This document shows, piece after piece, positions 12,717-62,600 of a stretch of 64,000 nt of DNA. The notes beneath the pieces are model-generated. The model was not told the DNA's origin, did not search any database, and saw only the letters and a program-made list of their open reading frames with translations. The DNA is from Nemertoderma westbladi. Its lineage: Eukaryota > Animalia > Xenacoelomorpha. The position numbers and the translations under genes were made by a program. The stretch is taken from contig JAUCBJ010003424.1 in NCBI GenBank assembly GCA_032718475.1, positions 1-64,000 on the forward strand, written 5' to 3'. Numbering within the stretch: the first letter of the stretch is position 1; each line of letters begins with the position of its first letter.

Positions 12717-13733
12717 TGCTTAAATTTTATTATTGCAGTGTAAGGTTGCAATGTAAACTTACTGTATTATTCGATAGATCGTTAATAATTAATCTCTGAC
12801 AGATATTATTGGCTTTCGGGAAATATTAACAGTTCCTTTAGGACGTGGCGCTTTATCTATTTAAACAGAACTAAGACTTATACTAAAACGCAACGATACC
12901 GCTTATGATTAAAGTATAAAGCGTATTCTTTAGGAAATACTTTGTTACCAATCACAATCATACACACTATTCTGCCGACCGTCAGTATATTTGATCACAC
13001 ATAAAGAGAGCAGTAATTGACTCATGTAGTGTCTGCTAAATAACATTAGATTCAATACACACCACATTGATATAAATCGCAATTGTTATGTATAGCCGGT
13101 CTCTCTAACCTGTAGTGTATCAAGAAAATTGGGAAATTTGGGTGATTTATCCGTATTATCCAGAGAGCAATATTTCCATCAACAAATAGGTACAATTAAT
13201 AACTGACAGTAAATAACAGTACAAACAATATGATTAATAGTGAGTTAAGATTGATTAGTTAAGTAAGGTTAGTTAATGAGATTCGATTCGGTAACAGTTT
13301 ATACTTTCGATAATTTAAGCAGTTTTACTAGAGTTCTTCCCAAAAGCCGGTGTTATGGCGAAAATGGGAACACAACAACAGAATCATATAAAATCATATG
13401 ACTACTACCACTATACGAGTATACCAAAAACTCTTATTCCCCGAAGCTCCCGTCCAACACAGAGGATGAGCAGTGAGATAGGAAATTCAGTTCAGTAGCG
13501 CTGGGATAGGTCGAAATTAACGCCCACTCAAATTCTATTGGCCGATACGGACAGCAAGGCTAAAGCAACCTCTCTAAGCTAGTTGGCCGATTAAACTGAG
13601 CCCAGATATCTCCGTACAGCACATCAGCCAATAAGCTGGTAGCTTGCACTATTTTAGTTATAAATCCCTTTGAGAGTATTCTAGCGACTGGGGGGAACTG
13701 GCCAGCAAAGGCAAACGTATCAGTTATCCCACA
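12717..13733 (-). repeat. 3' LTR of element A
   Basis: Minus strand reads TGTGGGATAAC...AATAAAATTTAAGCA. No difference from 24907-25923 was found by eye. AATAAA (minus) at 12731-12726. Confidence 0.92.
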
Positions 13734-13804
13734 AAATCTAAGTCTATAAAGTCTATAAAATATACAAAATCACAGTTTCTAAAATATAAAAATACTCTAA
13801 ACAG

Positions 13805-14725
13805 TTAGTCTTTCTTGCGCGGACGGCGTTTACGCAGTTTTTTAAAGCTAGCAAGAGTCCTTTTCTCTTTGGGGCGAGCCACTTTACGAGGAGGGCTATA
13901 ACTCCTGGGTGAAGGGTGCAATATGATTGCATCAGAAGGTATGGGATTGCGATCGGTATATCCGCCGGTCGAAGTACCGGGTTGATTGACATCAACGTCC
14001 GGGGAGAGGGGTCTAACGGCTTTGAGAGCCCGTTTCAAGACAGCCGCTCTTACGGGTCCTGTACGAGTGGTCTGCACGAGGGCCGTGGGTGGACCATAGG
14101 TAGTTAGAAATTTCCTTGGTTTAATGGTTCTTTCCAACTCGCGTTCGCGGGCTCGATACTCGTAAGGCCGTCGATATACTTCCTGTAACTCGGGGTGTGA
14201 GTTGACAAATAAGTCTCCATAGGCAGGGTCTTGACGGATAAAGTTTATTAAGTTGTAAGAATGGATGTCACTCGGATTAATGCTCCTGAGGAATTTGCGT
14301 ACATATTTAGTTGAAATACATTCTCCAACGCGCTTCAATAGTTCATAACTTGATAGGCGTGATTTTTGCTCGACAGATGCAAACAAATAAGGATGGAACG
14401 CATAAACTCCTTCGTAAGCGCGTCCAGGGTAATAGCGATGGCGTGAATCACAATGTAAATCAGCGTTCGCTTCCCAAGCTCTGATATAACGTAGTACAAT
14501 CATTTCATCTACGCTCTCTAAATCATGGTTAAAGGGACAATCAAAGCTGGCGTGTCCTTTTAATTGACAATGATGGCATTGAGTCATAAATTGGGGGCAG
14601 ACAGCAAAAATCTTCAATTCCATAAAAAGAGTTCTGTAAAGGTCTAGCGCATATGTTGACATCGTGTACCATACGACGGACAAGATCCGCTCGATTGTCC
14701 GGAGGTTCAACGAGTATACCGTCAA
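13805..14725 (-). CDS. Element A accessory ORF4: CCHC zinc-knuckle protein with a basic C-terminal tail
   Basis: 306-codon open frame with in-frame ATGs at 14662, 14623 and 14587. Motif CHHCQLKGHASFDC (CX2CX4HX4C). Ends KKLRKRRPRKKD. Overlaps the end of ORF3 in the +1 frame. Confidence 0.75.
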   Translation of the reverse strand: MTVYSLNLRTIERILSVVWYTMSTYALDLYRTLFMELKIFAVCPQFMTQCHHCQLKGHASFDCPFNHDLESVDEMIVLRYIRAWEANADLHCDSRHRYYPGRAYEGVYAFHPYLFASVEQKSRLSSYELLKRVGECISTKYVRKFLRSINPSDIHSYNLINFIRQDPAYGDLFVNSHPELQEVYRRPYEYRARERELERTIKPRKFLTTYGPPTALVQTTRTGPVRAAVLKRALKAVRPLSPDVDVNQPGTSTGGYTDRNPIPSDAIILHPSPRSYSPPRKVARPKEKRTLASFKKLRKRRPRKKD

Positions 14726-16307
14726 CTCGAGCAGCCTCGATTGGCGGATGCTGTAACATAGGAGCGTCAGCGATAAGATTTTGCGATCTTATGCTGATAT
14801 CAACCGGTTGGGGTTGTATCTTTGCGAAAAGTTTATCACCGAAATGAGGAACCATCGAGGGATGACGGACGGTTTTAGAGTAGAGATCGGTTATGAGTAT
14901 CTGCGCTTCGGGTTGGGCTAAAGCGGCTTCTTCTCTCTCATCCATTTCCGTATGCCTCTCCTCCAGTTGATTCTCCTCCGCCTGTTTCTGCAAGCGTTCT
15001 TCCAGAAACTCCTGTAGAGAATACGTACGTCCAAGCTCGATGTCCTCTTCGAGGTTTTGGATTTCTCTATCAAACTGCGGCAAGGCTAGCTCTTTCACCG
15101 ATTGGACCTGCTGCTGTAATTTACGTTTCTCTAGAAAATCCTGGGTTCCCTTTCCGATTTTCTGTCGGATGGCGTCTAGAGCGTTTCTGATGACACTCTC
15201 CTCGACTTCCGTGGCAGGTTGTATCGGAGTTAATCCTGGCCGGTTGTAAGGATTAAATGGCGATGTTAGATGTCCGCGTCCCAATCCAGTTAAATAGGAT
15301 GGTCGAATATCCAACGAACCTACCGCCGGAACACCACCGATTAACTGCTCGGGTAACACCAAATCCTTGAACAGTGAGTATAATTCGGGAGGATCAGTGA
15401 TACTGTTAGGATCAAGAGTTTGAGGTCTCACGGGGAAATGGGGAGGTCTGACCGAGTATTCCGGAACTCTGATCATGGGTTTATTTAGCGATCGTTTTAG
15501 ACGGGCGATCGTAGGTGATACGTCGAACAGGTTTCGCTCGAAACTCCCGTAAGTATAACGCGTAAAACTGTGTTTAGCACAACGTCTCCGCGGATGTTTA
15601 TGTCTTTCCGTTTGCTGGTTAGGTCTAGGACATGAGTCACAATAATACCAAAGACGTACGTCCTGCAGAGGAAACGCGGGTGATCGTTCTCCAGTTTTGC
15701 AATACTCTTCCATTTGTTCAAAGCTGTCCGGGACAACAGGCAGTGGACGATCTGCGGTAAGATACATCATGGTGAAATAGAGTCGTTTGAGTTCTACCAT
15801 GGGATCGTGATGTATACCTTGAGGATATCGAGTCTCTAGGTTCTGTTGACTGGCAATATTGAGATAGGTTTCTCTCAAAAATTCCACGTAGTCGTTGAAG
15901 TTGATACGCTTATCGGGTTCTTCAACGTTTTCTCTGTCGAGTAGGTTGCGAATAGAGTTCTCGTGTTCTATTCTCGGTTTGTCATTACGATTCCGCTGGG
16001 CATGATATTTAAATAAAACCATTTCCCTTTCGGTGTCTACATCATCAGCATCATGTAAATCGGTGGGATGGCCGGTAGTTAAGAAGTCCATATACGTACC
16101 ATTGCGATTCGTATAGCGAGCGGTGAATTTTCTATAGTCCGCTTCACGCGTAAGTTGTTCCTGGGACATCAGCGGTTCGATATAACGACCATCGTCCTCC
16201 GTAATAGTCGGATCGGCTTCACCGCGTATCAAGCTATCCACAAACGCTTGCAAAGGTAGAGTATATCGCTCTCTAATACCAAGGTCATCTTCTATCAATT
16301 CCGTCAT
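14541..16307 (-). CDS. Element A accessory ORF3 (588 aa), unknown function, putative CxxC...CxxH zinc site and coiled coil; not Env-like
   Basis: Long ATG-initiated ORF in the env position with no signal peptide or transmembrane segment. Homologous to the ORF starting at 63436. Confidence 0.88.
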   Translation of the reverse strand: MTELIEDDLGIRERYTLPLQAFVDSLIRGEADPTITEDDGRYIEPLMSQEQLTREADYRKFTARYTNRNGTYMDFLTTGHPTDLHDADDVDTEREMVLFKYHAQRNRNDKPRIEHENSIRNLLDRENVEEPDKRINFNDYVEFLRETYLNIASQQNLETRYPQGIHHDPMVELKRLYFTMMYLTADRPLPVVPDSFEQMEEYCKTGERSPAFPLQDVRLWYYCDSCPRPNQQTERHKHPRRRCAKHSFTRYTYGSFERNLFDVSPTIARLKRSLNKPMIRVPEYSVRPPHFPVRPQTLDPNSITDPPELYSLFKDLVLPEQLIGGVPAVGSLDIRPSYLTGLGRGHLTSPFNPYNRPGLTPIQPATEVEESVIRNALDAIRQKIGKGTQDFLEKRKLQQQVQSVKELALPQFDREIQNLEEDIELGRTYSLQEFLEERLQKQAEENQLEERHTEMDEREEAALAQPEAQILITDLYSKTVRHPSMVPHFGDKLFAKIQPQPVDISIRSQNLIADAPMLQHPPIEAARVDGILVEPPDNRADLVRRMVHDVNICARPLQNSFYGIEDFCCLPPIYDSMPSLSIKRTRQL

Positions 16308-16350
16308 ATCTGCTATCTGAGTTTATTAATATCAATATGAGTTAATAGTT

Positions 16351-16505: not shown

Positions 16506-17119
16506 TGAATCCACTTGAGGTTATATCGGTAGAGTTAGGGCTATTTTACAATTGCGATTAGCTACTGTAAACACACTTTAGTAGTAACATTCACCTATAA
16601 ACGCACAAATTCCATACAATCATTGCTTACTGCACACATGCATGCCATTTGTCCGTTAGTCAGTGTCTTCCAGAATGTCACGTTATTACTATGTATCCTT
16701 GGATACTAATAGTGCGCTATGTATACTCTTATGCTACGCAATGGGGCAAGCTTTTTATTGTTCCTTTAACTTGCTTCTAATTCTAGCGTGGGTGTTGCCA
16801 TGGTGACATTATGGAAAACTAGCGGTAGAATTAGGGCAATTCTCATGTATACAGATCTGGGATGTTATTTAATAGTAATTCTTTAATTGTCAATCTTCTC
16901 TTTATGCCTGATTTTATAAATTTTATCGGCTATTGACTATATATTGGAGATTCTCGCACTCTAGTACACTCAATATGAATCTCCGCTCCCATGATCTATT
17001 AATTACTGGAATTTTGGGAATGTTGTAAATTGCACAAAATGACAATTTATGAAATTCATTCGAATATGAATTTAAATTTATTCCCTTGAATTTTATTATT
17101 TGATGTTAAAATTGACACA

Positions 17120-17928: not shown

Positions 17929-20900
17929 TTACGTTATGGAGTCCCTAGATATTTGTCGGATTAGGGAAGTGGCCGTAGGAAGAGTATCTTGCCTTCCATA
18001 GTTTCCGGACAGTTTTCGGTCTCTTTCCAGTAAACATAAACGACTAGCTGGGCGATTGAGTGGTTGTGTTAGTTTCTCCGCTCCCTTGGCCTGTCTACTC
18101 TCCGCCGTGGTAAGATGAGGAGGCCATTCTTCTTCTTCTTTACTTAAGAAGTCGGATCCACCTAACCAGCCTGGAGTATCTATCAGTTCTTGAGGAGTTG
18201 CTCCTCTGGAAGCGATGTCGGCTGGATTAATCGTCCCAAGGCAATGTCTCCATTGATCTACATTGGAGTTAATATCGTCATTATCTGAGGAGTATGGTGT
18301 TCCCTCAGTTGGGTCGTCCACATCACTGCTCTCCACTTCCCCCTTTACTTGGTATACCTGTTGTTGAGGGAATCTCTCTTTGAGAGTTCTACGGGAAGGG
18401 CCAGTGAAGTACCAACCTACTCTAGTTCTTACCGCATAGGTTTGTAGTGGCTGTGGTTGAGCAGGCCGTTTCTCTAATGGCTCGAGCGCCTCATGCGCGT
18501 TTTGGCCGATGAGTATTTGCACTCCAGGATAATCGGTTTGGAATCGAGGTATCTCAAGATGTTGGATGCACTCGTCCTCGTCCCAGTTATAAGGTTCTGC
18601 TTGAGTAGTAGCAAAGTTCTTTATAGCCACCATTTTTACTGACCTTATACCTTGTGTTCCTAACTTATCCTGGGGGGTGGACAACACACCTACATAGTAA
18701 TCTGCCGTTAGGGTAGATTTCCAAACCTGCATAATTCCTGACATATTCAATTTAGTCCGGAACTTGGGTTGTCCAGCAAAGATATCTTCGGCTAGTTCTT
18801 GATCGATGAATGTTCCTGTGCTGCCGGAGTCAAGTAGGGCGTTCACTATGTAACTCTTGTTGGGACCATGAACTCGAACTTGCACTACAGGAAATTCTCT
18901 TATTCCTATGTTGGAAGTTGGAACTTTCCAAGATGGTTGTTTGTCAAAAGGAGTTGGAGTAAACTCGTCAGTGTCCTTTTCATCCGTAAGTGCTCGATAC
19001 ACTGTGGTATTTATTAGATAACAGGATTCGTTGGCATCGGAGAATTCGTCTGTATAGAATCCTTCCCACTCAGAACCTTGGTCAGTGTCGTTCACATCAC
19101 TGAATTGGACATGTAGTTCGGGCTCACTTACCTGACTCGGGTTGTCTCGTTCGAACTCACTGTGTAACAAAATGTGATGTTTCGCGCCACACTTTGCACA
19201 CTTTGCGTCGGAGTAACAGGTTCGCCGTTGGTGTCCTGATCTGAGGCAATTATAGCATAACCGCTTATTCCACAGGACTGTACGTCTGTCTACAGGGGAT
19301 TTCTTTAGAAATTCAGCACACGCACTCAAACGGTGAGGCCCGTCGCACAGCGCACATTTTGGTTTGATGTTACTCACCTTAACTTGGTTAACGTTATGCA
19401 CTCTCGTTCTTTCTTCGGGCTTTCTTCCGTGAATTCTCTTAGGAGACGTAGGAGGAGTTGTTGTTACCTGTTCTCTCCTGTCACTGGTTCGAGACTTGTA
19501 TTTACTTACGTCTTTATAGGTCTTGTTGTCATAGTAAGATTTTGCTGTGTCTTTCCCGCTGTCCTCTTCTTGAGAAGCTTGGCTTTCGCCGTCGTCAGTA
19601 TAACACACTGGTATTATCCTTCTCCTAGAATCGGGTTTCTCACTTACCTTATTTTCCGATGTTTTCTCTCTGGCCTGCCTTATGAGTTGTAATTTTACTT
19701 CACTATCTAAGAAAGACATGAGATCAGCCATGGTAGGACTTCGTCGTTGTTGTTCATTCATGTACAACACTTTCTTGTCCCAGCGTGTACATACTCCACC
19801 CTTTGGTAAAGTAGAGACTATGGCTCCAATAACCATGGAACTCTGATATTCATGCGACTTACCTAACCAGTCCAGTTGTCTACAGATCTCTTGAATTTCA
19901 TCGGAAACTATAATCCCGCTACTAAGGAAGTGTCGGGGGGCTACTAATTTTGCATACAGATACTTAGCTATGTTATCCTTGTTACCATACCTGATGTTTA
20001 GTGTATCCCAAACTTGTCTTAATCCATCTGGATGTCCAATAAACTTTAACGCCATTAACTTGGGAGGTCCTTCCAAGCACTTGATGAGGAATCTAAGTTT
20101 CTCTCCGTTAGATAGTACAGAGTTCTGTATGCTATCTTTGTAATATTCGTTGAAAGGTAACCATTTCATCTCATCTCCATTGAATTTGACGATCTCTCCC
20201 ACTTTGACCGCTTGGCGGGCTTCTGTTCTAGCCATCTGACGCGTAAAGCTTTCTTGGGCCATCGTGTTATTTAATATCGAATTATCGGTATACAAATTTC
20301 TCGGATCATTATCAGGTCTATAGGGAATATCATTAATAACAGGTCTATAATCACCCTTAATAGGGTTTGCTATAGGAGTTTCAACTTCACTAGCAGTATA
20401 GATGCGTGTAGGCTCCACACCTTGCGCATGTAATACTTCAGACCTAACGGGTTGACACAATGTTACAGGGGGTATTGGTATGCCTCTTTGTATATTGACT
20501 AATTTGTCGCGTTCTAGCGCGATACTTTGCTGCACTTCTTGCAACTCTGCTCTACCTTCCCTCACTGTTCCCTTAAGTTGGTGGACAGTCTCCTGCATCT
20601 GTCCTAGCAGGAGATTCATCCCCCGCCGTCCCTCTTCCACCCACTCAACCGCCGAAGCGGGAGTCGCCAACATAGTAGCGGGCTGACGCGGGACGACGGG
20701 AGACAAATTATTGATTTCTCTCTCTGCTATCTGGACAGGGATATTTGCATGGACTGTTCCACCGGGTACAGGCAGTGTAGTACTATGTAAAGGGAATTTA
20801 GAGTTAAGCTCTGGAAGTGTAGGGGTCTCTAGCACAGAAGTGACTTTGGGAACAACAGGCCTAATTATTTCAGGTTCATCGACTATAGTAGGGAGTCTTT

Positions 20901-22545
20901 TGACCTGGATAAATTGTTCTATGGGTTCTGCACTACCTAAGTCTGTACTAGTTAGCTGTCTTTTAACAGCTGGGGGCAAATCAGGCAATTTGCGACGGTA
21001 ATATGTTTTTCTACGCCTACTTAGATGAGATCTATTTCCTCCGCCTTCAGGATCGGTAGTATCGCCTTCCTCCGAGGATGTGTATCCCTGGCGCTTGGGA
21101 GTAGATTTTCTCATCATCTGCATTTGATTAGCAGTAAACTGTTTATTTATACTGTCTTGTGTCTCTTGCAGATTTTCCAACTCCAGTTGGGTAGTCTGTT
21201 CAGAGGCTCTCCGTTCTGCTTCGGCCACTGCCCTTTCCGCCTTTGCTTCTGCCGCCGCTGCCTTTCTTTTTGCTTCTGCTTCTACCGCTGCTGCCCTTCC
21301 TGCTATTCTTTCTGCTTCTACTTCTGCCGCCACTGCCTTTCTTTCTGCTTCTGCTTCTGCCGTAGCCGCCGCCTTTTGTTCCTCTATCCTTCTTTTCTTT
21401 ATTTGTTCTTCTCGGACTCTAGTGAGGCGGAGTTTTTCATCACATTCAGCTTGGTTTGCAGCTAACATTTCGGCATCGATTGAGTCCAACACAAGCTTGG
21501 TTCCTTCACTATTAGGGGAAAGTCCAGACAGCCGTCTCCTCAACTCTTCGTCTCCTAGGAATCGCTGATAGTCGGACAAATAAATGTCGATAGCGTCTCT
21601 AGTTCGCGGTTCCTCGGCGGCCTCTTCGCTTTTCGCTTGAGAAAGGGTGACATCAGTTGGTTCTTCATAGGTTGATCTCTCAGCCAGCTGGGATTTCCAC
21701 TGGGCCGTTTCCTGTACTTTGAGATCTACCCGATGTAGCCAAGTCTTGACAGCAACCTGCAGCGACGTGTCCTGTCTTCTTTTGGAAGTTTCCTCAAAGG
21801 CTGAGAGGATTGGTCGTATGCGTAGGGTTCTTTCGCGTATTTGATATAGCAGTTCTTCCTGCTCTTGAGGTCCGTGAGGTTGTCGAAACAGTTGTTCTTC
21901 CAATCGATCCAAGGATCCGAAGAATCCCTGCACATATCCTGCTGCCGACCTCTTCCAAACAGCTGGATCCATTGTATCTTTAGCCACTCCCATCCTGTGT
22001 ATATCTTCCCAAGTAGCCTCGGACAGATCCAACGGAAGTCCGAGTCCGGGAAAGTTCCATTGTGATTCAACAATAGATATCAATTCTTCCCTGGCGTATC
22101 CCGCGTAATTATCTTGGGTCGCTCGCTTATTCTTCGCCCAGTCGGCTTGATGTTCCTCCACCGCAATGAATATAGTAGTTAGCACTGCAGCAGGAAGAGT
22201 AAGAAGGGGGTCCGAGTAGACTGTATCAGCCATCTGCACTCCATGTTCGGGAGTCAACTCTACAGTATCCGAACTGCTGGAGCTATCGGGTCGCTGGGAA
22301 GTAGGTTCTTGACCAAGATGTTGCTGCGATAGGACAACTGCCTCTTGGTCCCGTTTTACCTGTGCCCGAGTGCCTATGATGGACCTATGGTGGACTAGCC
22401 TAGGGTCTGATACTACTGGAGGGATGACCTTTTTTACAGTAGGAGGTGAGCCGAACTCCTTTCTTATTCGCTCCACACTCCTATCTGAATCACAAATAGT
22501 TGTATCGATCAGACTGTCTGACAGGTTTTGCTGAGTGTCAGACAT
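17929..22545 (-). CDS. gag: BEL/Pao Gag-protease polyprotein (1538 aa) with in-frame loss of RT, RNase H and integrase core
   Basis: Gag core KFNGDEMKWLPF...EKLRFLIKCLEG. Knuckles CALCDGPHRLSAC, CYNCLRSGHQRRTC and CAKCGAKHHILLH. Protease ALLDSGS...ILIG...TRVGW. It then runs directly into WRHCLGTINPADIASRG and RPASRLCLLE. No YVDD, DAS or D,D35E motifs. Confidence 0.93.
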   Translation of the reverse strand: MSDTQQNLSDSLIDTTICDSDRSVERIRKEFGSPPTVKKVIPPVVSDPRLVHHRSIIGTRAQVKRDQEAVVLSQQHLGQEPTSQRPDSSSSSDTVELTPEHGVQMADTVYSDPLLTLPAAVLTTIFIAVEEHQADWAKNKRATQDNYAGYAREELISIVESQWNFPGLGLPLDLSEATWEDIHRMGVAKDTMDPAVWKRSAAGYVQGFFGSLDRLEEQLFRQPHGPQEQEELLYQIRERTLRIRPILSAFEETSKRRQDTSLQVAVKTWLHRVDLKVQETAQWKSQLAERSTYEEPTDVTLSQAKSEEAAEEPRTRDAIDIYLSDYQRFLGDEELRRRLSGLSPNSEGTKLVLDSIDAEMLAANQAECDEKLRLTRVREEQIKKRRIEEQKAAATAEAEAERKAVAAEVEAERIAGRAAAVEAEAKRKAAAAEAKAERAVAEAERRASEQTTQLELENLQETQDSINKQFTANQMQMMRKSTPKRQGYTSSEEGDTTDPEGGGNRSHLSRRRKTYYRRKLPDLPPAVKRQLTSTDLGSAEPIEQFIQVKRLPTIVDEPEIIRPVVPKVTSVLETPTLPELNSKFPLHSTTLPVPGGTVHANIPVQIAEREINNLSPVVPRQPATMLATPASAVEWVEEGRRGMNLLLGQMQETVHQLKGTVREGRAELQEVQQSIALERDKLVNIQRGIPIPPVTLCQPVRSEVLHAQGVEPTRIYTASEVETPIANPIKGDYRPVINDIPYRPDNDPRNLYTDNSILNNTMAQESFTRQMARTEARQAVKVGEIVKFNGDEMKWLPFNEYYKDSIQNSVLSNGEKLRFLIKCLEGPPKLMALKFIGHPDGLRQVWDTLNIRYGNKDNIAKYLYAKLVAPRHFLSSGIIVSDEIQEICRQLDWLGKSHEYQSSMVIGAIVSTLPKGGVCTRWDKKVLYMNEQQRRSPTMADLMSFLDSEVKLQLIRQAREKTSENKVSEKPDSRRRIIPVCYTDDGESQASQEEDSGKDTAKSYYDNKTYKDVSKYKSRTSDRREQVTTTPPTSPKRIHGRKPEERTRVHNVNQVKVSNIKPKCALCDGPHRLSACAEFLKKSPVDRRTVLWNKRLCYNCLRSGHQRRTCYSDAKCAKCGAKHHILLHSEFERDNPSQVSEPELHVQFSDVNDTDQGSEWEGFYTDEFSDANESCYLINTTVYRALTDEKDTDEFTPTPFDKQPSWKVPTSNIGIREFPVVQVRVHGPNKSYIVNALLDSGSTGTFIDQELAEDIFAGQPKFRTKLNMSGIMQVWKSTLTADYYVGVLSTPQDKLGTQGIRSVKMVAIKNFATTQAEPYNWDEDECIQHLEIPRFQTDYPGVQILIGQNAHEALEPLEKRPAQPQPLQTYAVRTRVGWYFTGPSRRTLKERFPQQQVYQVKGEVESSDVDDPTEGTPYSSDNDDINSNVDQWRHCLGTINPADIASRGATPQELIDTPGWLGGSDFLSKEEEEWPPHLTTAESRQAKGAEKLTQPLNRPASRLCLLERDRKLSGNYGRQDTLPTATSLIRQISRDSIT

Positions 22546-24906: not shown

Positions 24907-25923
24907 TGCTTAAATTTTATTATTGCAGTGTAAGGTTGCAATGTAAACTTACTGTATTATTCGATAGATCGTTAATAATTAATCTCTGACAGATATTATT
25001 GGCTTTCGGGAAATATTAACAGTTCCTTTAGGACGTGGCGCTTTATCTATTTAAACAGAACTAAGACTTATACTAAAACGCAACGATACCGCTTATGATT
25101 AAAGTATAAAGCGTATTCTTTAGGAAATACTTTGTTACCAATCACAATCATACACACTATTCTGCCGACCGTCAGTATATTTGATCACACATAAAGAGAG
25201 CAGTAATTGACTCATGTAGTGTCTGCTAAATAACATTAGATTCAATACACACCACATTGATATAAATCGCAATTGTTATGTATAGCCGGTCTCTCTAACC
25301 TGTAGTGTATCAAGAAAATTGGGAAATTTGGGTGATTTATCCGTATTATCCAGAGAGCAATATTTCCATCAACAAATAGGTACAATTAATAACTGACAGT
25401 AAATAACAGTACAAACAATATGATTAATAGTGAGTTAAGATTGATTAGTTAAGTAAGGTTAGTTAATGAGATTCGATTCGGTAACAGTTTATACTTTCGA
25501 TAATTTAAGCAGTTTTACTAGAGTTCTTCCCAAAAGCCGGTGTTATGGCGAAAATGGGAACACAACAACAGAATCATATAAAATCATATGACTACTACCA
25601 CTATACGAGTATACCAAAAACTCTTATTCCCCGAAGCTCCCGTCCAACACAGAGGATGAGCAGTGAGATAGGAAATTCAGTTCAGTAGCGCTGGGATAGG
25701 TCGAAATTAACGCCCACTCAAATTCTATTGGCCGATACGGACAGCAAGGCTAAAGCAACCTCTCTAAGCTAGTTGGCCGATTAAACTGAGCCCAGATATC
25801 TCCGTACAGCACATCAGCCAATAAGCTGGTAGCTTGCACTATTTTAGTTATAAATCCCTTTGAGAGTATTCTAGCGACTGGGGGGAACTGGCCAGCAAAG
25901 GCAAACGTATCAGTTATCCCACA
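24907..25923 (-). repeat. 5' LTR of element A
   Basis: Direct repeat of 12717-13733. Confidence 0.92.
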
Positions 25924-26779
25924 AAAGCTTTTACAGATAGCATATTTGAATTCCCCGTATGGATATTGACTGTATAGAATGTACCTTAACCAACTAAAGT
26001 TAAAAATAAAAATTATTCGATTATAACTACTTTACAAATTCTGGCCCTTTTTGGCCCCTATTGCCGACATATTTTTTGTACCCCCATTCGATAGGAACGT
26101 AGCCCCAATGGTCTTCTACGAGTTTCATAAAAGAATTAGTGGATTCCTACCCGCGTTGTCGAATTAAACATTTCGGAAATAAGTTTTCCAAAAAGGACGG
26201 ACAAAAACGTACAAATTTAGAGCCCCTTTTTCCACCCGAAATTTTAATAAATATCTTACCCCCATTCGATACGAAGGTAGTACCACTCTTCCCCTTTCCA
26301 ACCGCGTTACTTTCGTCCCCGTACGATTAATATTAGCCGAGTTATAGCGGATCCCGCAGAGTCATTTTGTCCGTTTTTTCAACTTTGACGGACATTTTTG
26401 GAAAAAAGGCGTGGTAATCTTTTTTGAAAAAAAAAATGAATTCACTAATTAATCCCTTCTATCGTATCCCGGCGTCGGCTAAGCAATAACCTAGGGTTTT
26501 TTCGAGCCACTGTAGAGCGCCTTTCAAAAACATTTTAAAATTGTCGAAAAAATGACGGATTTAATAATGTTAGAGTTGCTAATATCTTAGAATTCCGAGG
26601 TGCTCCCCTGGTGAGAAAATAAAAAAATTTGGTCAGTTCCTTCATCGAAAAGTCCCCCAGAATCCCAAGTTAACCTATATAGTTAGCGATGGCCTGCGGC
26701 TTTAGGAGCGGCCGCGGTATTCACCTCCCTCATAGCGGCCGCGGCGGTGTTGCGTCAAATGGAGAAATATTTATCCCAC

Positions 26780-51383: not shown

Positions 51384-51432
51384 GTGCAGAATTTCAACTC
51401 ATTTAAATTAACCGCTACAAATTAATTGCATT

Positions 51433-51762: not shown

Positions 51763-53635
51763 AACTCAGGGACAGGATGGCCGGCTAGAGATCGGGCCGC
51801 AGCAATGAACGGGAACATCACGGGAATGTAGACGAGAGACAACCCGCAATACCATTTAGAGTTATTCGCCCATCGCCTGAAAGGTTAGACAGCGTTCGAT
51901 CCTTGCTACCTAAGTATAAGACCAAAAGATCAAAAGGTAGACGTAGTGACACGCTGTAAGCCCAAAATTACATCATAGGGACTGTACTGTCTTGATTCAG
52001 GAAAACCCACAGTAGACCTTCACTTTCCTACGGGGGGGGAGGGAGAGAGAGCAGATACTAGTACGCAGATAGGACGTAGGCACACCGGTACAAGGCATAC
52101 ACATTGGTTAGGGTGCAGCAAACTGTACGCTTAACTCTTGCTAAGTACAGGTGTGTGTGCGACTATTTGCAGTACGACAGTGTCCATTACATCAGAACTT
52201 GTAGGCTAGGGGGGTTGCTGTGTTTTCACCTGAATTGGGATTGTACCGTTCAGGCGGTAGGGCAGTTTACGCTAGGCGCAAATAAATTGAGGCTATCAGG
52301 GATACTAACATCTACCGTGTCCCCGCCAACGCCCTAATAGGAAGTTACCCGGACTACCTGGGTGACTAAAATTCTAGATAGGAGCCAGGATAGCTATTAG
52401 TACCCGTACGCCTACAGTAGTAAACTAACACATCTCTTCTTAGTATCAGGGACCTGGTACCTAAAATTGCCGAATTCTGGGCGTAGTATTAACCTTATGC
52501 CTGAATTTGAGTCCTGGAAATACGCAAGAGGGGAAGGAACCTTATCATTCGTGAGTATTGGACCTACAAGTTACAAAATTAGAATATTCGTAAATGCACA
52601 CCGTACCCAGTAATTATATATGTGAAGGAGCAAAACTGTTTTGACCGTTCAGAATTAACACACGCGCGTTAGAAATTATTTACACCTCGAAATATATAAA
52701 ATTAACTTTGTCCGTACTGTGCTTTGCCCGCTAGTTAGACATCTCCAAATCTCTGCCTGTACCTAGCTAGCGTCTCTTTGCCCAACCATATAAATCACAC
52801 CGCGGCAAAGTATACGAGCCCCTTAGTCCGTCAGTGAGTCAGCCTGATTTTAGGATTCGCTGCGCGGGATTTGTTTTATCGAAGTTTGTCTGCTCGTAGA
52901 CTGTTTTCTGCCTCACCGGTTATAAGAGATCGATACTGCAATATATTCGTTTACTTAGAGTTTACTGTTTTGGTGAGAAGGTCGGATTTATGATTTGATT
53001 TACAAACTTTACAGTAGGATATTGCAGGTATTGTTACCGTCTCTTCCAATAGTAGGAATGTGTTTTACTGAACTACGGTTCAGTAGGACTAAAGTTATTT
53101 AAAAATTTTGTATTTTGAGGTAAAATTTGTATTTGATTAGCTAAGCGCTGATTTTTGAAATAAAATTTGATTTGAACCGCGTGTAAAAATATTTTTTGGA
53201 ATTGAATACCGGTGTTTAAAAGGGTTTAAATACCATATTGTACCGGTACAAAATTTTCGTAAAGTAAAACCTAACTCTTTTGTTTTTTCAGGATTCAGAA
53301 CTCATTTCTAGACTGTAACGGGAGCAAGACCGTGTTTAGCAAGTTTGGGAGATAGATAACTCAACAACTTTGGTTGGGAAAATCGCGTTTCGTCCGCAAC
53401 GTTAAAAACGGAAAGGTTCACGTTCGGTTTGTATCTGGGAATCTGTTTTTCTGGAGAATTATTGGAGTGGGTGAGTTCGAAAAGTTGCATAAATAAGTTA
53501 GGCATTACCGTATTTAGTTAAAATTATTGTGGGTTCCACTGTCTCAAGTATTTATGCATTCCGTATGATTTCTTTGTTCATTGCTGAATTAGTCCGTATT
53601 ATTGTATTTAATTTACCTTTTGATAACGCATATCG

Positions 53636-53859: not shown

Positions 53860-56241
53860 ATGAGTGACAAACAAGACTATACGAAGAATACACAAACCGA
53901 CTATGACTCATGCGACGGAGATAAGTCAGCAGCGGAAGAACAACAGGGGAAGACTCGCGAGCCTACCGAACCTACACCGTGTGCGTCACCAGTACATCCA
54001 ACGGGAGTACCGGATGCCGTAGTACGAGGCGACGGCAGGACCGAGGACTTTCTAACTGTTCCGCAACCTAGATACAGGGAAACGGAAATGGTAAGTTCAG
54101 CAGGAAGTACAGAAAGTGTGGTTAGAAGCGTCGGAGGTTACATGGCGCATATTACCAGGAGTATTGGAGAAGGCCAACGCATATTAGACGGGTTGACCGC
54201 TCCGATGTCTCGATTCGAGTTCTACACCCTCCAGGTTAGAGTACAGAGTAAAGTATATAAGTCCGTAGATAATCTAGTTGGCCTACAAGATCTAGCTAGA
54301 CAGAGACAGGACATGGATACTCAACTTAGAATCCTCGAGAAACTAATGATCACTAGAGAGAAACTGATTCAGTTTAAGTCGACGATTAGACAGATACAAC
54401 AGGAACAAGCGGACCAGTTGTTAGGTGAGTCAGTTTCGGACGAATTATTACAACCCGAGGAAGAACAGGAACTGTACCGACTGGATGGACAATTAAAACA
54501 CCTGACGGACCACTTACGTATGTGCGGCGAAGACGTCGGAGATTGGGAAACCGTGCCGGAATATACGAAGGAAACTTCACCCGTACGAATCGAATCGGCA
54601 CCGGGAATACTGGACCAATCGTTGGTAAGTATTCGTAGTGAAATCTGCGAGGGAAGTATAGTCACGTCAGAAGTTGCTCGACAACAGCAAGAATTCCACC
54701 GACAACGACAAGAAATGGAAGAACAAGCTCAACTTCTAGTGATGCAGGCAGCAGTAGAGGAAGAGAAGCTACGCGTTGCGAATATAGCAAGAATCTCTCA
54801 TCTACAGGAACAAGCTGAATTAGAAGCAGCCGAAGTAGAAAGGTTAGAAGTAGACATTGCCCGACAAGCGGCAGCGGCAGCGGCCGAGGTAGAGCGACGA
54901 GCGGCAGCGGCCGAATTAGAGCGACAAAACGCAGCGGCCGAGTTGGAGCGACAAACGGCAGCGGCAGCGGCCGAGGTAGAGCGACGAGCGGCAGCGGCCG
55001 AGTTGGAGCGACAAACGGCAGCGGCAGAATTACAACGAGAAAGGTTAGTTTCGGAAGCGCGGGCCGAAATGAAAACACGGCAAATAAAAGCTCAATCCGC
55101 TATACGACAAGCGGAGTTTGAGGCGCAACGACAACAAACGGAACAACGAGAGAAGACAGTGAAACTTCATTTCGAACTCGAGAAGAAGGCGAGAGAATTA
55201 GCGAACGCCGAGGAAGATTTGGATCAAAAGGCCCGCGATAGATCGATGAGATCTCGTGACGGACATGATTTGGACCAGTTAGAGGTAAGACATCGCCAAA
55301 TTCAGGAACGGAAGAAGGAAGGAAGCGTAGGAGCACCCGGACGGGAACGACAATTAGTAAAAGACGTGTGTCAACGATTCCCACAGGTAACTCATATGTT
55401 TGCACCGGTTACGACTAAGGAACCTGTTTCGATTGCGGGTAGTAGTGATATTTCTCCTATCCATGGTGCGACGGAACACAGGTTTGTTATTCCGGACGAG
55501 TTTATACCGCCAAGAGCAACGTCGTCGCCCATTCCGAAAGTCAAGGTAAGTAACCCACCGATTACGGATCGTAGTAGTTTATTGACCGGACCTGCGCTAC
55601 TGACGACAAAACAGGTGAGTCCACCGTCGACACCTAAACCCGTTACACACTACGCTTACCCAATGACGTTTCGACCAACAAGGCCTTTGGATTCAAATGC
55701 TGTCATTCGCCCACCGAACCAGTTTACATCGCAATCTACGACTTCGAGGAAGACTTGTGAGCCTACCGAACAACGGAGAACAGTGGAGACGCGACCATTC
55801 AACCATTTTACATCGCAATCTACGACTTCGAGGAAGACTTGTGAGCCTACCGAACAACGGAGAACAGTGGAGACGCGACCATTCAACCAGTTTACATCGC
55901 AATCTACGACTTCGAGGAAGACTTGTGAGCCTACCGAACAACGGAGAACAGTGGAGACGCGACCATTCAACCATTTTACATCGCAATCTACGACTTCGAG
56001 GAAGACTTGTGAGCCTACCGAACAACGGAGAACAGTGGAGACGCGACCATTCAACCAGTTTACATCGCAATCTACGACTTCGAGGAAGACTTGTGAGCCT
56101 ACCGAACAACGGAGAACAGTGGACGATGTTCCGAAACGAAATGTTAGAATTCGTACGACGCAACGGACGCGAGCACGTCGACCACCATATCCGGATGATA
56201 GTAGTACTTCGAGCGAATCGGATTACCCGAAACGCGAATGA
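53860..56241 (+). CDS. gag: Element B Gag, N-terminal part (coiled coil, AAAE repeats, 28-aa repeats)
   Basis: 793-aa ATG ORF with the same architecture as the N-half of element A Gag (MSD start, Ala/Glu/Arg coiled coil, Pro/Thr-rich region). It continues by +1 shifts into ~56240-56612 and then the pol frame. Confidence 0.85.
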   Translation: MSDKQDYTKNTQTDYDSCDGDKSAAEEQQGKTREPTEPTPCASPVHPTGVPDAVVRGDGRTEDFLTVPQPRYRETEMVSSAGSTESVVRSVGGYMAHITRSIGEGQRILDGLTAPMSRFEFYTLQVRVQSKVYKSVDNLVGLQDLARQRQDMDTQLRILEKLMITREKLIQFKSTIRQIQQEQADQLLGESVSDELLQPEEEQELYRLDGQLKHLTDHLRMCGEDVGDWETVPEYTKETSPVRIESAPGILDQSLVSIRSEICEGSIVTSEVARQQQEFHRQRQEMEEQAQLLVMQAAVEEEKLRVANIARISHLQEQAELEAAEVERLEVDIARQAAAAAAEVERRAAAAELERQNAAAELERQTAAAAAEVERRAAAAELERQTAAAELQRERLVSEARAEMKTRQIKAQSAIRQAEFEAQRQQTEQREKTVKLHFELEKKARELANAEEDLDQKARDRSMRSRDGHDLDQLEVRHRQIQERKKEGSVGAPGRERQLVKDVCQRFPQVTHMFAPVTTKEPVSIAGSSDISPIHGATEHRFVIPDEFIPPRATSSPIPKVKVSNPPITDRSSLLTGPALLTTKQVSPPSTPKPVTHYAYPMTFRPTRPLDSNAVIRPPNQFTSQSTTSRKTCEPTEQRRTVETRPFNHFTSQSTTSRKTCEPTEQRRTVETRPFNQFTSQSTTSRKTCEPTEQRRTVETRPFNHFTSQSTTSRKTCEPTEQRRTVETRPFNQFTSQSTTSRKTCEPTEQRRTVDDVPKRNVRIRTTQRTRARRPPYPDDSSTSSESDYPKRE
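55717..56122 (+). repeat. 84-bp coding tandem repeat (~4.8 copies) within gag
   Basis: N(Q/H)FTSQSTTSRKTCEPTEQRRTVETRPF units start at 55717, 55801, 55885, 55969 and 56053. CAG and CAT alternate, giving a 168-bp dimer period. Confidence 0.95.
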
Positions 56242-56612
56242 ATATAAACGCGAGCGTTCAGACAACTCCTTTGCAGATAATCCTCCACAGAATACACCAA
56301 CACAGAAGGCGTTACAACCAACGGACGCAATTAGTACACAACAGTTCGCCGACATTCTGCGACCAGTTGTCAATAAGTTGGCTCAGATCGAGGAACGTCT
56401 GGAGGAAGGTTACACCGACAGTTCGAGAAATTCCGAATTCGAACACAATAGACACCCGAAGGGACCACAAAGACCGGTACCTTCAAACCCCACATCGTAT
56501 CAGGGAAAAGCGCCAAGAAGGGAGAACATCAACCAGACTACCAACCAAGGACGCGAAACTCTGAACGTTGCCGAGGAGATAGCGAAATTCGCAGCCAGAC
56601 AGGGATTGCCCT
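56240..56612 (+). CDS. gag: Element B Gag, middle segment between two +1 frame breaks
   Basis: EYKRERSDNSF...AEEIAKFAARQGLP is the 3' part of ORF 55697-56641. It leads into the Gag core as element A's FTRQMARTEARQAVKV does. Confidence 0.7.
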
Positions 56613-59600
56613 GTACAACAACCACCGAAGTTCTCCGGTAGCTCAAAACACTGGCATACCTTCGTAGACTATATCGAATCCCAGATCGCCGTGTGCGCCT
56701 TTACATCACGGGAGAAGTTCAATTACCTGCTCCAAACGTTGTCAGGAGAACCTAAACGTTTGGCGGAGACTTTCGTCGGTGTACCGGACGCTTTCGAACT
56801 AGCGTACGATCGTTTGACTTCGATATACGGAGGTACAGTGAGCATGGCCAGGTCAGTAATAGAGGAACTCTGTAAGGGAGGGGCTATCACTAAACCCGTC
56901 GACTTACTAAAACTAGCTGACGAGATCAAGAACGCTATCACTACCTTAAGATCAATTGGACAACTTGATTACGGGAATACCCCTACAGTCCTATTAAAGA
57001 TAATAGGACGACTCCACCATCGACTTCGTCGGGAGTGGAGGAAGGTCGAATACCAGCGAGAGGAGCGAGGAGGATTCCTAAAATTAGAAGATGTGTACCT
57101 TTTAATATCCAGGGAGGCGGTAGTAGAAACTCGATCTAACTACACCGACCAGCACATCGTGGCAGAAGGGATCACATTGCCATCCTCCAACCGACAAAAA
57201 CCCCAGACAACATCCACTAAGACGGCCACTTACACCACACCGACGGAATTACGACAATTCTCGGACGGTAGTAGGGTATCTGCGCCCATTGGGACAAAAC
57301 AGACGAGACAGCAACTCAGCACCGACTTCAACAGCTACCAATACTGCGAGCATCCAGGTAAGCGGTATATTGGTCACAAGTTACGAGGTTGTCGACAATT
57401 TCGCGAGTTGAACTCGGAAGAACGACGGCTGCAAATACGGCCACTGGACTCTTGTTGGCGATGTACGCGACACGGACACGTGCGCAAGGATTGCCCAAAT
57501 ACCGACACTTGTCCATCCTGTGGACGCAACCATGACGGTCTGCTCCACACAGACAGCCACACGCCGACGAAACGCTTCGCCAGGGAACACCCGGAAGCAG
57601 CAGCGAGATGTGATGCGGCTTACCGAAAACGAGAATCGAAAACGACTCCAACCTTCGTGACCCATATTGAGGATTGCTTCTCAGAACAATCCGGATCGTC
57701 GGACGAAGAATCAGAAGACGACGACGAATATTCCAATGGAGACGAACAACCGTCGATCGCGCTCCTGACTACTGATCAACTGAAGGGATTCAGTGTAATC
57801 CCGATTAAGGTTACTGGCACAAAGGGGAGCAAGAGGATCTATGCGATTCTAGATTCAGCCTCATCCCATAGCTACGTGGACGAAAAGATAGCTGACGTCG
57901 TGACGGATCTAAAACAAGGTAAGCACGTCAGTTATACAGTAAGTAGTATGCACGGACAGCGTGCAATACCAGTGACACGAGTTAAGTTGGACTTAGACTC
58001 TCTTCTTCCAAAATCGCAGCACAGCGAGAGGGAGAGGTCTTTGTTGCCCTTTAGAGATCTAACCTTTGCGGCCACGAAGGACTTTAGTAACCTACTAGGT
58101 CCAGTGCCGGAACAATCTCTAGAGGACCGTAAGTATTTCAGACACCTTGGTGTACCCGAATGTCCTGTCAATTATAGATCGGTAGCAATGCTGATCGGGA
58201 CGGACCAATTCAACCTACATCAGGTGTGGGAAACCAGACCATCGGCAGTTGTAGCGGGAAACGCATACGCCTGCAGAACGCCGATAGGGTGGTATACTCG
58301 AGCGCCTGTGCGCACACTAGACGTAAGTGACGAGGAAGACGATGTACAGAGTACATGTAGTTTATTAACTACAAATTCGATTCATTCCTTTTCACACGAC
58401 GTGAACCATACTACACTACAGTCGACAAAACACGACAGACGTGTAACTAGTATGATAAGTCACAAGGAGCAGCTAACCCACAAGGTGAGTTTAGAACTTG
58501 GGGAGAAGACGAGTCAGCTGGAGATTCCATCGACGACAGATGATAGGCTTGCGAGTCTACCTACCCCAATAACCTCAACAGTGCCAGTCGATATCGATGA
58601 TGACGCGTTGAGAAATCATCAGTTGGAACAAGCCGCCTTGGACAAGGAATTAACGGAGAAGACTATCAGGTGGTTAGAACAAGATACAGCTGAACCTGGT
58701 AGCTACGAACCTTGTATGTCGGAACAGGAGAAACAATCTCTGAAGATCATGGAAGATACTATCCGCCAGACGAAAGACGGACATTATGAGGTAGGTATGT
58801 TATGGCGTAGCCAAAGTCCTAAACTTATAAACAACTACCCACTGGCTTTAAGACGTCTACACTCAATACGGCAACGTCTATTAAAGGACGAGAAAGCCCA
58901 TCTGCAGTACAACACTCAGATGGAGACGTATTTGACGAAGGGATACGCTATCCGAATGACTAACCCGGAGCGAGTGACCGACCAAACGTATTACTTGCCA
59001 CATCACTACGTGAGACACCCCGACAAACCAGACAAAGTACGTGTAGTCAATGACTGTGCGGCTCTGTTTGAGGGAATGTCCCTCAATAGTGAGTTGATGG
59101 ATGGACCGAACATGAATAATTATCTTATGGGGGTGATTATGCGCTTCCGTCAGCGTCAAGTAGCCTTTACTTGCGACGTTGAAGCGATGTTTCACCAAGT
59201 AAAAGCGTTAGAGCGAGACAGAGACAGTTTGTGGTTCCTCTGGTACCCGGAAGGAGATTTAAGTCTACCACCGGCGACTTACCAAATGCAAGTTCGCGTT
59301 TTCGGTGCCAGAGACAGCCCAAATTGTACGATGTACGCCCTAAAGCAGGCCGCTAGGGATCAGAAACATCTATATGACCCAGAGATAATTAGAATTGTGG
59401 AGCGTGACTTTTACGTTGATGACGGATTACAGAGTTGCGACACAGTAGAACGTGCTACAACAGTAGCACATCAATTACGGGACTGCTTGGCGGGCGGAGG
59501 TTTTAACCTCACCAAATTCGCCTCAAACAGTGCCGAATTAGTAGACTCATTCGGAACTACTGAGCGTGGAGGTGGTGACATAGACCTAGAGTTCGAACCA

Positions 59601-62600
59601 CTACCGACGACTAAGGTGTTGGGGCTCTTTTGGGACCCAAACACAGACAACTTTCGAGTGAAAGTGAGACTGGACAGTCAAGAGAACACACTGACCAAGA
59701 GATCATGCTTGTCAAAATTGAGCCGATTGTTCGATCCGTTAGGATTCATCAGTCCAGTGATACTGCAAGCCCGCATTTATATGCGCAGTATATGGAAGGA
59801 TGGACTAACATGGGACGAGCCGATTTCATCAGACCAAGTGGACTTATGGAAGACCTGGGAGGCGGAATTATCTTCGCTAGAGGATTATTTCATACCCAGG
59901 GTTTACTTTCCATTACAAAGTACATTTCCTGACAACTTGGAACTACACTGTTTTTCTGACGCCAGTGACAACGGTTTTGGTGTGGCAGCGTACCTGCGCA
60001 GACAAGTAGAATCAGACGAGTTCGATGTTTCGCTCATTACTTCTAAGGCTAAGACCATGCCTACTAAGTATATGACGACACCACGAGCCGAGCTACAAGC
60101 CGCAACCCTGTCAACCACCATCGTGAACCTCATACAGACAGAACTACAGTCGAGTTTACAGATATTTTATTGGACTGACGCGACGTTGGTTTTATTTTAC
60201 ATAAACAACGACACACTCGAATTCAAGACATTCGTTGCTAACCGTCGCGCGGAAATTCTAGACCGTTCAATAAAAGAGGATTGGCGACATTGTCCCGGAC
60301 CACAAAACCCAGCTGATATTGCGTCGCGAGGAATGATGCCTCAGGAATTCTGTAAACCGGAGAACAAAGAATTTTGGCAACACGGACCCCAGTTCTTACA
60401 GAAATCGACACAAGATTGGCCTCCGTTATACGACAACAAGTCCAACACCATTCCTAAGGACGCCGAAATCAAGAAACCAAAAAAGGGGAAGACAAAGAAA
60501 AAGACAACGGCGGCAAAACTCAAGAAAAAACCGAAGGCGAAATGGAAAGATATAACTTCAAAGGTCAAGAGAGGAAGACTTGCGAGCCTTTCTACACCAG
60601 ACATATCGCCAGACGGTCAAACAGACACGTTACTAGACGGTCAACCAGACATTTTGCCAGACATATCACAAAATGTTCCACCAGACGCTAGTAACACACT
60701 GACAAACAGTAAAGCCGCAGTTTCCCTATTGGAGCGGCCTTCTATTGACAAACAACCAGATACGTTACCAGACGTATCGCCAGACACATTACTAGACAGT
60801 CGACCAGACATTAGTAATGTATTGACAAACAGTAAAGCCGCAGTTTCTCTATTGGAGCGGCCTTGTATTGACAAACTACCAATTTTGACACACTTGAGCA
60901 ACCATAAGCACGGTGAAACCTCATGTATTACAGATGTGGGTAGTACCTACGCTAATGTAAATACAGGTGTTACTTTGCGCTCAAGAGACATACCGAACTT
61001 GCAACCTATGGTGAAACCTGGGATTAATATCGGCAGAAAAATTAGTTTACCGAAACCCACTGATCCCATAGAGTTCAAACCACCATTAACGATCGACTTA
61101 CAAAGTACCGACAATCAAGGTAAGAAGACAAAGAAGGACAAATTACTTGTAGACCCGGACGGATCAACAGTCAACAAGGGAATACCTACCGGCGGACCCG
61201 TGGGCCCTTCTAGTAATTCAAAACCTTCCAAATTCGCAATTGACTTACCTGATGACGTCACAAATACTCATGTCGACCGTATTGTAAACTTAACAGATTC
61301 TTGGACAAGCGCTTGCCGAAAATTAGCGTGGATTGTACGTTTTGTACAATACGTTAAAGGCAAACGCGACTTTACGCGTCGACTTACATTGACTGAGATT
61401 GACAGTTGTGAGATTAAATTAATTCGCCATTACCAACTGCGATATTTCGCGCGCGAATTCACATCTATAAATCAAGGTCAACCAATCAAGTCGTCACCAA
61501 TACTGAGTTGGAGTCCGATAATTTATAATGGCTTAATTTGTCATAAATCTCGGCTTCAAAACATTGACTTTAACACGAACTTTAGGTACCCAATAATAAT
61601 ACCGCAACACCACGAACTACAACGTGCAATGATACTGGACGCACATCTACATCTGAAACACGCTGGAAGACACCACTGTCTTTCCTACTTACGTACTAGA
61701 TTTGTATTAATTAGACCCAGTAAAGCATTAAGTTCAGTGACACGTACGTGTATTATTTGTAAAAAGGTACATTCTAGAATAGGTACCCAAGAAATGAGTG
61801 AACTACCACAAGCACGACTTCAAGCATTCAGACCACCTTTTACAGAGACTGGAATTGATTGCTTTGGTCCCATACATACGAAACGTGGACGTATACTAGT
61901 AAAACGCTGGGGACTGATTTTCACATGTATGTCCAGTAGGGCAGTTCATATTGAACGTGTGATGGATCTTTCCACCAACGCGTTTATACTAGCACTGCGG
62001 CGATTTATCGCTAGACGCGGACTAGTGAAATGCTTGTACTCAGACCAAGGGACAAACTTTGTTGGTGCTCGGAATGAGATTGCTAGAGCCTTTAAGAAAT
62101 TAGATCATGATCAAATCTCGAACGAACTGCAACCTCACAAGATTGTTTGGAAGTTTAATCCTCCAGATAGTCCTTGGAGAGGCGGAGTCTGGGAGAGATT
62201 GATTAGATCTATCAAAACGGCCATGGCAAAGGTCATTCCAGTAAACCACATATTAACAGACGACCAACTGACAACATTGTTTGTTGAAATCGAGGCAATA
62301 CTAAATACTAGACCAATAGTATTAGTACCCGATGACAAACAATCTCAGTTTGCTTTGACACCGGCACACCTGCTTATGCAGGCACCGACAACTTTGACAC
62401 CTATTTCTATTCCAATAGAAAGCGACAGTTACGGTAGAAAAGCGTGGAAAATCACGCAACTACTAGCTACCAAATTCTGGGAAATATGGCAAAACCATTA
62501 TTTGCCCTCTATTTCTGCCAGAACAAACTGGTACAATAACACCCGCGCATTAAAGCCGGGAGATCACGTGCTGTTAGCGGAAGTGAATCTAAAAAGACGC

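Follow-up and report, generated by a model that had tools for sequence, protein, structure and literature searches.

BEL/Pao long terminal repeat (LTR) retrotransposons usually carry gag and pol only, with env found in few of them (PMC3118150), and the third open reading frames (ORFs) described for this superfamily encode phlebovirus Gc-, gB- or F-like glycoproteins (10.1101/2021.11.23.469668, PMC13524379). Overlapping ORFs occur in C. elegans belpaoviruses (10.1101/2021.11.23.469668) and accessory ORFs in planarian Burro (PMC6431247), while accessory genes are listed for Retroviridae, Caulimoviridae and some Ty3/Gypsy clades (Llorens et al., PMC2774666). Other animal LTR lineages are already known to have non-Env ORF3s in the env position: CERV of Cer1, which is made from a spliced mRNA, lacks homologues beyond its genus and contains a Cys loop that may bind zinc and is needed for genomic RNA (gRNA) export (PMC10309623), and the ORF3s of bdelloid rotifer LTR clades (DEDDy, GDSL, CC and transmembrane [TM] types), which also use spliced messages (PMC5408684). 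In a 64,000-nt stretch of Nemertoderma westbladi DNA (contig JAUCBJ010003424.1, positions 1 to 64,000; “the window”), two diverged BEL/Pao elements, A and B, share a conserved third gene after pol, ORF3, which bears no sign of being an envelope and is very likely a real, undescribed accessory gene; element A carries a further accessory ORF, ORF4. The ORF3 features are as follows.

14541..16307, minus strand: ORF3 of element A (ORF3-A), 588 aa, with an acidic N-terminus, a conserved core (aa 137-255), a Pro-rich linker and an acidic predicted coiled coil
63436..64000, plus strand: ORF3 of element B (ORF3-B), first 188 aa from the ATG at 63436, the frame being cut by the window end
15570..15641, minus strand: predicted zinc site of ORF3-A, C-x2-C-x16-C-x2-H (C223, C243), all four residues kept in ORF3-B
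63880-63972, plus strand: predicted zinc site of ORF3-B, C-x2-C-x23-C-x2-H

An initial annotation of this DNA had proposed both frames and a CxxC...CxxH site common to them, and frames, quoted motifs and site all read as it claimed. BLASTP aligns the two proteins at 33% identity (44 of 134 columns, E 3e-13), and their Smith-Waterman score is 147, as against at most 67 in 1000 shuffles and 64 for the runner-up among the 185 window ORFs of at least 60 aa; as DNA, the two genes do not align (best blastn E 0.12). Gag of the two elements aligns at 23%, and the ORF3 core is therefore better conserved than Gag, with neither of which (A or B) ORF3 aligns. The shared core is predicted to form a helix-loop-helix and a Pro-containing strand, followed by the C-x2-C-x16/23-C-x2-H site, which probably binds zinc. 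A 588-codon open frame is expected by chance at ~2e-14, and the base composition of ORF3-A resembles that of gag and pol (GC 0.46).

Purifying selection on the ORF3 protein is supported by sequence patterns both between and within element families. Over 113 aligned core codons, nucleotide identity between the ORF3s of A and B is 0.43 at first, 0.61 at second and 0.31 at third codon positions; third positions are saturated, 26 of the 40 identical residues use different codons, and fourfold sites match at 6 of 15. Within the element A family, contigs from four public sequencing runs (X1-X4) were compared with element A, and variants were taken from the best-supported rows (best 40 of 2437 and best 40 of 618). 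Twenty of these rows fall in ORF3, and once 2 in the ORF4 overlap are set aside, 12 of 18 are silent vs 0.30 expected (p 0.0014), with a hand estimate of dN/dS of ~0.2; the silent variants listed number 5 of 6 in ORF4 (p 0.012) and 5 of 9 in Gag. Most listed contig pieces inside ORF3 (11 of 13), and all six inside ORF4, are gap-free despite other letters differing at up to ~19%, the two remaining ORF3 pieces having 24 gap letters in one and 2 in the other, and those over the LTR and the ORF3 5' leader having 5 and 11. Cys/His codons are untouched among the variant rows listed, conservation of these residues being a matter of the A vs B comparison alone. Element A belongs to a highly repeated family (107,621 contigs in X1 and 26,944 in X3), with a summed depth four orders of magnitude above that of the single-copy flank (a ratio that is not a copy number), and a further run (X7, organism C) yielded only 4 short pieces.

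Searches for relatives of the accessory ORFs came back blank. Pfam, PHROGs and PDB sequences gave nothing at E <0.03; protein sets of 5.8 billion and 1.84 billion sequences yielded no true relative; none of 7994 candidates for ORF3 (lengths 323-1029 only) or of 622 for ORF4 (lengths 149-476 only) matched; exact look-up of window proteins found 0 of 5, viral contigs gave 0 of 2 and 0 of 46, and the best ESM Atlas scores (0.78 and 0.82) provided no lead at a threshold of 0.9. AlphaFold2 models were of low confidence (mean pLDDT 37 and 44) and Foldseek returned nothing at E 0.001; the structural comparison suggested in the initial annotation was uninformative. The sole match among the 1.84 billion representatives, a bacterial HYR-repeat protein (P0008), was rejected as nine weak repeats summed (best single E 6e-4), as were two metagenome contigs (L001 and L002, the 2 of 103 pattern matches that passed), in which 23-35 residues matched with no Cys motif next to bacterial-looking neighbour ORFs, and which resemble neither Gag nor Pol nor ORF4. 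A literature search, with Repbase, Dfam, GyDB and most subscription papers outside its reach, found no non-Env zinc-site ORF3 in BEL/Pao; entries for both element families may already exist in which the ORF lacks annotation. These blanks weigh less in a host that is apparently poorly represented in databases. ORF3 constitutes a novel protein family, as is its Cys/His module novel, although the slot that it occupies is of a familiar kind.

Envelope traits were likewise sought. Maximum 19-residue hydropathy is 1.21 in ORF3-A, 0.07 in ORF3-B (first 188 aa) and 0.99 in ORF4; judged by hydropathy, ORF3 has neither a signal peptide nor a C-terminal TM anchor, as had been claimed, a judgement that in B extends over the first 188 aa only. 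Pfam and protein-set searches found no homology of ORF3 to F, gB or Gc fusogens, no TM helix of sORF2/FAST type occurs in ORF3 or ORF4, and ORF3-A, whose 588 aa include only 7 Cys and a single sequon, does not resemble a Cys-rich glycosylated ectodomain. The proposal of a lineage-specific, non-Env family under purifying selection is thus borne out by the codon-position pattern, the silent-biased variants and the blank searches; neither a match to an Env or host gene family nor a neutral pattern emerged.

How ORF3 might be expressed is suggested by contigs that join the LTR to its leader, and the sites concerned are these.

25293..25302, minus strand: LTR splice donor AG/GTTAGA of element A (CAG/GTTAGA), the exon ending at 25300, which equals 13110 in the 3' LTR
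16524..16540, minus strand: landing site of the LTR joint in element A, a branch-point-like CTAAC plus pyrimidines, the acceptor of copy A not being canonical
51882..51889, plus strand: candidate donor AG/GTTAGA of element B, predicted, the sole pattern match in 51001-53860 (no reads compared)
63375..63405, plus strand: candidate acceptor of element B, CTAAC-pyrimidine tract-AG, predicted, 30 nt before the ORF3 ATG

Run X4 holds two contig joints, 16507->13110 and 16524->13118 (depth 493 and 1109), both of which end at the GT donor of the LTR or at most 9 nt away and whose other side lies directly past the CTAAC and pyrimidines, ~220 nt upstream of the ORF3 ATG. If read as RNA, the joint removes 8.8 kb (leader and gag-pol), i.e., the pattern of an env mRNA. 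We consider it probable that the joint represents a spliced mRNA; a genomic copy of spliced RNA would give an identical joint, with splicing still implied. The ORF3 frame of element A is closed 5 codons upstream of its ATG, and the first exon is therefore non-coding for ORF3. In element B the candidate donor hexamer is the same as in element A and the candidate acceptor is strong. Nearly all contigs differ from the window sequence at the landing site, and the LTR-to-ORF3 joint is not among the 4 joint rows listed for X2 and X3. Contig depth in X4 is higher over ORF3 and ORF4 than over gag and leader, a measure that cannot rank genes and was not used as evidence. Between acceptor and ORF3 ATG, both elements contain a three-codon upstream ORF (16434-16445, minus strand, and 63411-63422, plus strand). 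A 73-codon Cys-containing frame at 16316-16534 was rejected as a gene, 4 of 12 listed indel rows being 1-nt changes inside it.

The elements that carry ORF3 consist of the following parts, in which PR, RT, RNase H and IN stand for protease, reverse transcriptase, ribonuclease H and integrase.

53860..56241, plus strand: N-terminal part of element B gag, the frame interrupted before 56583
56583..62780, plus strand: C-terminal part of element B Gag and full pol (PR-RT-RNase H-IN), with PF05380 (E 6e-42), PF18701 (E 2e-20), PF03564 (E 6e-11) and YVDD at 59412
24907..25935, minus strand: 5' LTR of element A (TG...CA, ~1029 bp), which starts TGTAAAAGC at 25935
17929..22545, minus strand: Gag-protease frame of element A, 1538 aa, with DUF1759, zinc knuckles and an LDSG protease motif
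12717..13736, minus strand: 3' LTR of element A, its first 9 bp missing and no polypurine tract before it in this copy

Element B has the BEL/Pao order PR-RT-RNase H-IN (57849, 59412, 60282 and 61851) and all three of the domains PF05380 (Pao A17), DUF1759 and DUF5641; element A has DUF1759, and its leftover pol pieces align to element B. A direct TG...CA LTR pair is present in element A, 100% identical over 1020 bp (24907-25926 vs 12717-13736), while the 3' LTR of element B lies outside the window. The initial annotation could not align the LTRs, leaders and most Gag sequence of the two elements by eye; the DNA of the whole elements (best 17 bp) and the LTRs indeed do not align, whereas the capsid/nucleocapsid/protease region of Gag does (23% over 628 columns). 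Its placement of ORF3 after pol on the sense strand is correct in position, with the amendment that in element A pol is without RT, integrase and the greater part of RNase H. In-frame tandem repeats are found in element B gag (55717-56123 and 54862-55032, in 84-bp and 27/87-bp units), and similar Ala/Glu-rich repeats in element A gag (21244-21362).

The pol losses of element A are in-frame deletions, of RT and most of RNase H near 18255 and of integrase near 18060; the frame jumps from the protease end to the RNase H end and on to the pol tail, which is native and kept to the native pol stop, and the Gag-pol frame gave no A17, RT or IN match. Without RT and integrase, element A evidently depends on others, and despite this loss its Gag-protease, ORF3 and ORF4 are all open. 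No strong loose end lies at 18057-18255 (minus strand) among the best-supported rows listed, and the deletions may be common in the family. Many contigs have loose ends at 13749, beside the 3' LTR, and contigs of three runs depart from the element A sequence at 14611, where this copy is probably broken or replaced relative to many others. Because many copies leave at 14611, the usual family ORF3 end and ORF4 start are unreadable from copy A, and the C-terminus of its ORF3 may be atypical for the family. No target-site duplication abuts both LTRs, the flanks being different, an observation that concerns the copy and not the family. After the 5' LTR there is no TGG-type primer-binding site (24880-24906, minus strand); many X3 contigs continue likewise, and priming may be unusual. 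At the other end, a single-copy contig present in X1, X2, X3 and X4 matches the flank (12090-12709) up to 12709, the one side covered, and then has other letters; element A may be absent from this site in the X1-X4 samples.

ORF4 was missed in the initial annotation and is, together with the X4 splice joint and the in-frame loss of RT/RNase H and integrase from element A, new beyond it.

13805..14788, minus strand: ORF4 of element A (ORF4-A), 327 codons between stops, sharing 248 nt with ORF3 in a different frame, with a CCHC knuckle (14578-14537) and an Arg/Lys-rich tail

The knuckle (C-x2-C-x4-H-x4-C at 14578) matches the retroviral-type CCHC, a pattern that 2 of 20000 shuffles give, and reaches Pfam zf-CCHC_3 at E 0.13 only, under the cut-off; the tail, with 15 Arg/Lys in 30 residues near the end, ranks at the top of 1000 shuffles. 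The true start of ORF4 is uncertain because of the departure of many copies at 14611. None of five known +1/-1 shift patterns occurs in the ORF3/ORF4 overlap, and the two could be one gene in other copies.

Among described systems, CERV of Cer1 (C. elegans) matches ORF3 in its orphan-ORF, env-position anatomy, within an element of another superfamily (Ty3/Gypsy-type). The spliced-mRNA feature of CERV may have its counterpart here in a joint from one run (X4) that is not on record as RNA. The N-half of CERV is spliced from Gag exons, whereas the joint seen here leaves out gag and ORF3 starts at an ATG of its own; CERV has a C4 loop where ORF3 has C3H spacing, and the role demonstrated for CERV is, by analogy, proposed for ORF3. 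With gag left out by the joint and the frame closed before the ATG, ORF3 has no Gag-shared N-half; database searches (no direct alignment) found neither the H/M/G domains of CERV nor sequence homology to it, the structure models being too poor for folds to be compared. As judged by the features tested, ORF3 is not a CERV-family member. With HIV-1 Rev (PMC10309623) the likeness is one of proposed logic, in which a protein encoded by a spliced RNA allows the unspliced RNA to leave the nucleus; ORF3 shows no homology to Rev and no export signal above chance, and no response element was found (Rfam, 0 matches in 12000-27800). Env-bearing BEL/Pao elements (roo, Tas, Atlas, other nematode belpaoviruses, mosquito chuvirus-like) have the same backbone and a post-pol ORF, but their glycoproteins have signal and TM segments, whereas ORF3 has neither and matches none. 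Cer7 also carries an accessory ORF. The bdelloid ORF3s resemble the present one in being non-Env proteins in the env slot with a separate spliced message, and pol-deleted, non-autonomous TelKA2n keeps its env-like ORF as element A keeps ORF3; yet they belong to other clades and are recognisable enzymes or TM proteins, whereas ORF3 here is without a known domain (PMC5408684). Drosophila MDG1/412 offers, in sORF1 and sORF2, another case in which purifying selection acts on a pair of accessory ORFs in an LTR lineage that lacks Env, though these are of 70-110 aa, upstream of gag and unspliced, and sORF2 is a TM, fusogen-like protein (10.1101/2025.03.14.642691).

In the reading that we propose, ORF3 is probably translated from a subgenomic RNA that starts in the LTR and from which gag-pol has been spliced out. 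Its product, a predicted zinc-binding regulator, would spare the full-length genomic RNA from being spliced and retained in the nucleus, in the manner of CERV for Cer1 and of Rev for HIV. ORF4, given its knuckle and Arg/Lys-rich tail, would be an RNA-binding partner or, in other copies, the far end of the ORF3 gene. If an intron of at least 8.8 kb is spliced out, the unspliced RNA still needs export, and the spliced product is the usual seat of an export factor. Of the roles suggested in the initial annotation (RNA export, transactivation or anti-silencing), the splice joint slightly favours RNA export. A CERV/Rev-like regulator of gRNA export is accordingly a reading that we hold tentatively, at somewhat less than an even chance. 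The wider scenario, in which a BEL/Pao lineage would have become a “complex” retroelement, with an LTR splice to an orphan ORF3 and ORF4 module acting as an independently invented Rev/CERV-type exporter that was kept after RT and integrase were lost, is possible and open to more doubt.

Several observations weigh against this interpretation. Both joints are from X4 alone, at 80% likeness and with side lengths unstated, 2 rows of the joint table being unlisted; this run bears the label “DNA?”, extends over the single-copy flank (12198-12709) and has no RNA origin on record. The acceptor of copy A is non-canonical, and this copy may not make the spliced RNA. The ORF3 frame would be disrupted by three low-depth X3 joints, a single X4 contig carries an extra nucleotide within ORF4, and the variants considered are the best-supported subsets of their tables. 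Export- and nuclear-signal patterns are no commoner than in shuffles (p 0.15-0.75), no CERV or Rev homology was found, and the role in RNA export is a prediction.

ORF3 might instead, from the same spliced RNA, make a silencing suppressor or an LTR transactivator that binds chromatin, DNA or piRNA-pathway factors and aids high copy number. Foamy-virus Tas and plant VANC are possible parallels for such a role. An activator would be in keeping with the zinc-type site and the long acidic and Pro-rich stretches; the family is a highly repeated one, and Drosophila MDG1 sORF1 is a nuclear accessory protein to which no role has been assigned (10.1101/2025.03.14.642691). However, no DNA-binding or known suppressor family was matched, the ORF4 knuckle is of the RNA-binding kind, and with the LTRs of A and B unalignable a sequence-specific activator needs a new target despite its conserved core; we regard this alternative as rather unlikely. 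Alternatively, ORF3 with ORF4 could be a second structural or nucleic-acid-chaperone protein (a Gag helper or a captured ORF1-like gene) acting in cytoplasmic packaging or particle traffic. A predicted coiled coil, then a CCHC knuckle and a basic tail, is an arrangement that recalls non-LTR ORF1 proteins; RT/IN-deleted element A keeps Gag, ORF3 and ORF4 together, and the ESM Atlas look-alikes of ORF4 include zf-CCHC clusters (0.75-0.79, below the lead threshold). Yet no RRM, capsid or ORF1 family was matched, ORF3 aligns with Gag of neither element, and what A and B have in common is the Cys/His core near the N-terminus, which is not a known chaperone module; we consider a structural role unlikely.

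A very diverged or truncated envelope, or a cell-to-cell transmission protein, fits the env position and the env-like splice, and with B cut at the window end and many copies leaving A at 14611 there is room for a C-terminal anchor elsewhere. The absence of a hydrophobic leader or TM segment, the few Cys and single sequon, and the lack of any match to Gc-, gB- or F-like BEL/Pao Envs or to TM-bearing sORF2/FAST proteins nonetheless render it highly improbable, and the observed splice cannot add a signal peptide because the frame is closed 5 codons before the ATG. Least probable of all, passive cargo (a recent host-gene capture or nested fragment) or a chance frame would sit well with the poor structure predictions and is largely refuted by the same position in two families with 23%-identical Gag, the saturated third positions, the silent-biased variants, the gag/pol-like GC and the low chance expectation.

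The window DNA is animal-like, with a TRPM frame and a satellite besides the two LTR elements. The TRPM-like channel frame (4167-7961, plus strand) runs uninterrupted for 1264 aa, and its nearest database proteins are vertebrate TRPM6, at only 23-26% identity; TRPM genes have many introns as a rule. The satellite (27849-51170) comprises 355 copies of a 66-bp unit at 95% matches, within which frames of equal length repeat at 7346 bp spacing (30269/37615 and 32983/40329), a hint of a higher-order repeat. Nested long inverted repeats occupy 1329-3828 (arms 82-96% complementary, core 1.3 kb), one arm overlapping a non-LTR RT-like fragment (3044-3577) that, by eye, another non-LTR RT-like C-terminal fragment (26736-27308, plus strand) resembles. 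Between satellite and element B, 51293-51365 (plus strand) is tRNA-like by eye, with no call by ARAGORN, and is possibly the head of a short interspersed element (SINE).

To our knowledge, nuclear exit of intron-containing retroelement RNA has been solved for few elements (Rev, CTE, CERV). On the evidence above, ORF3 predates the split of two families whose Gag proteins are only 23% identical, and a conserved, spliced, Env-unrelated BEL/Pao gene would offer an independent test case for RNA export in the LTR superfamily that has been studied least. A further lesson is that a position after pol is no sufficient ground for naming an ORF env. Should its function prove to be another one, ORF3 is still a protein family, and its Cys/His site a module, not described before.

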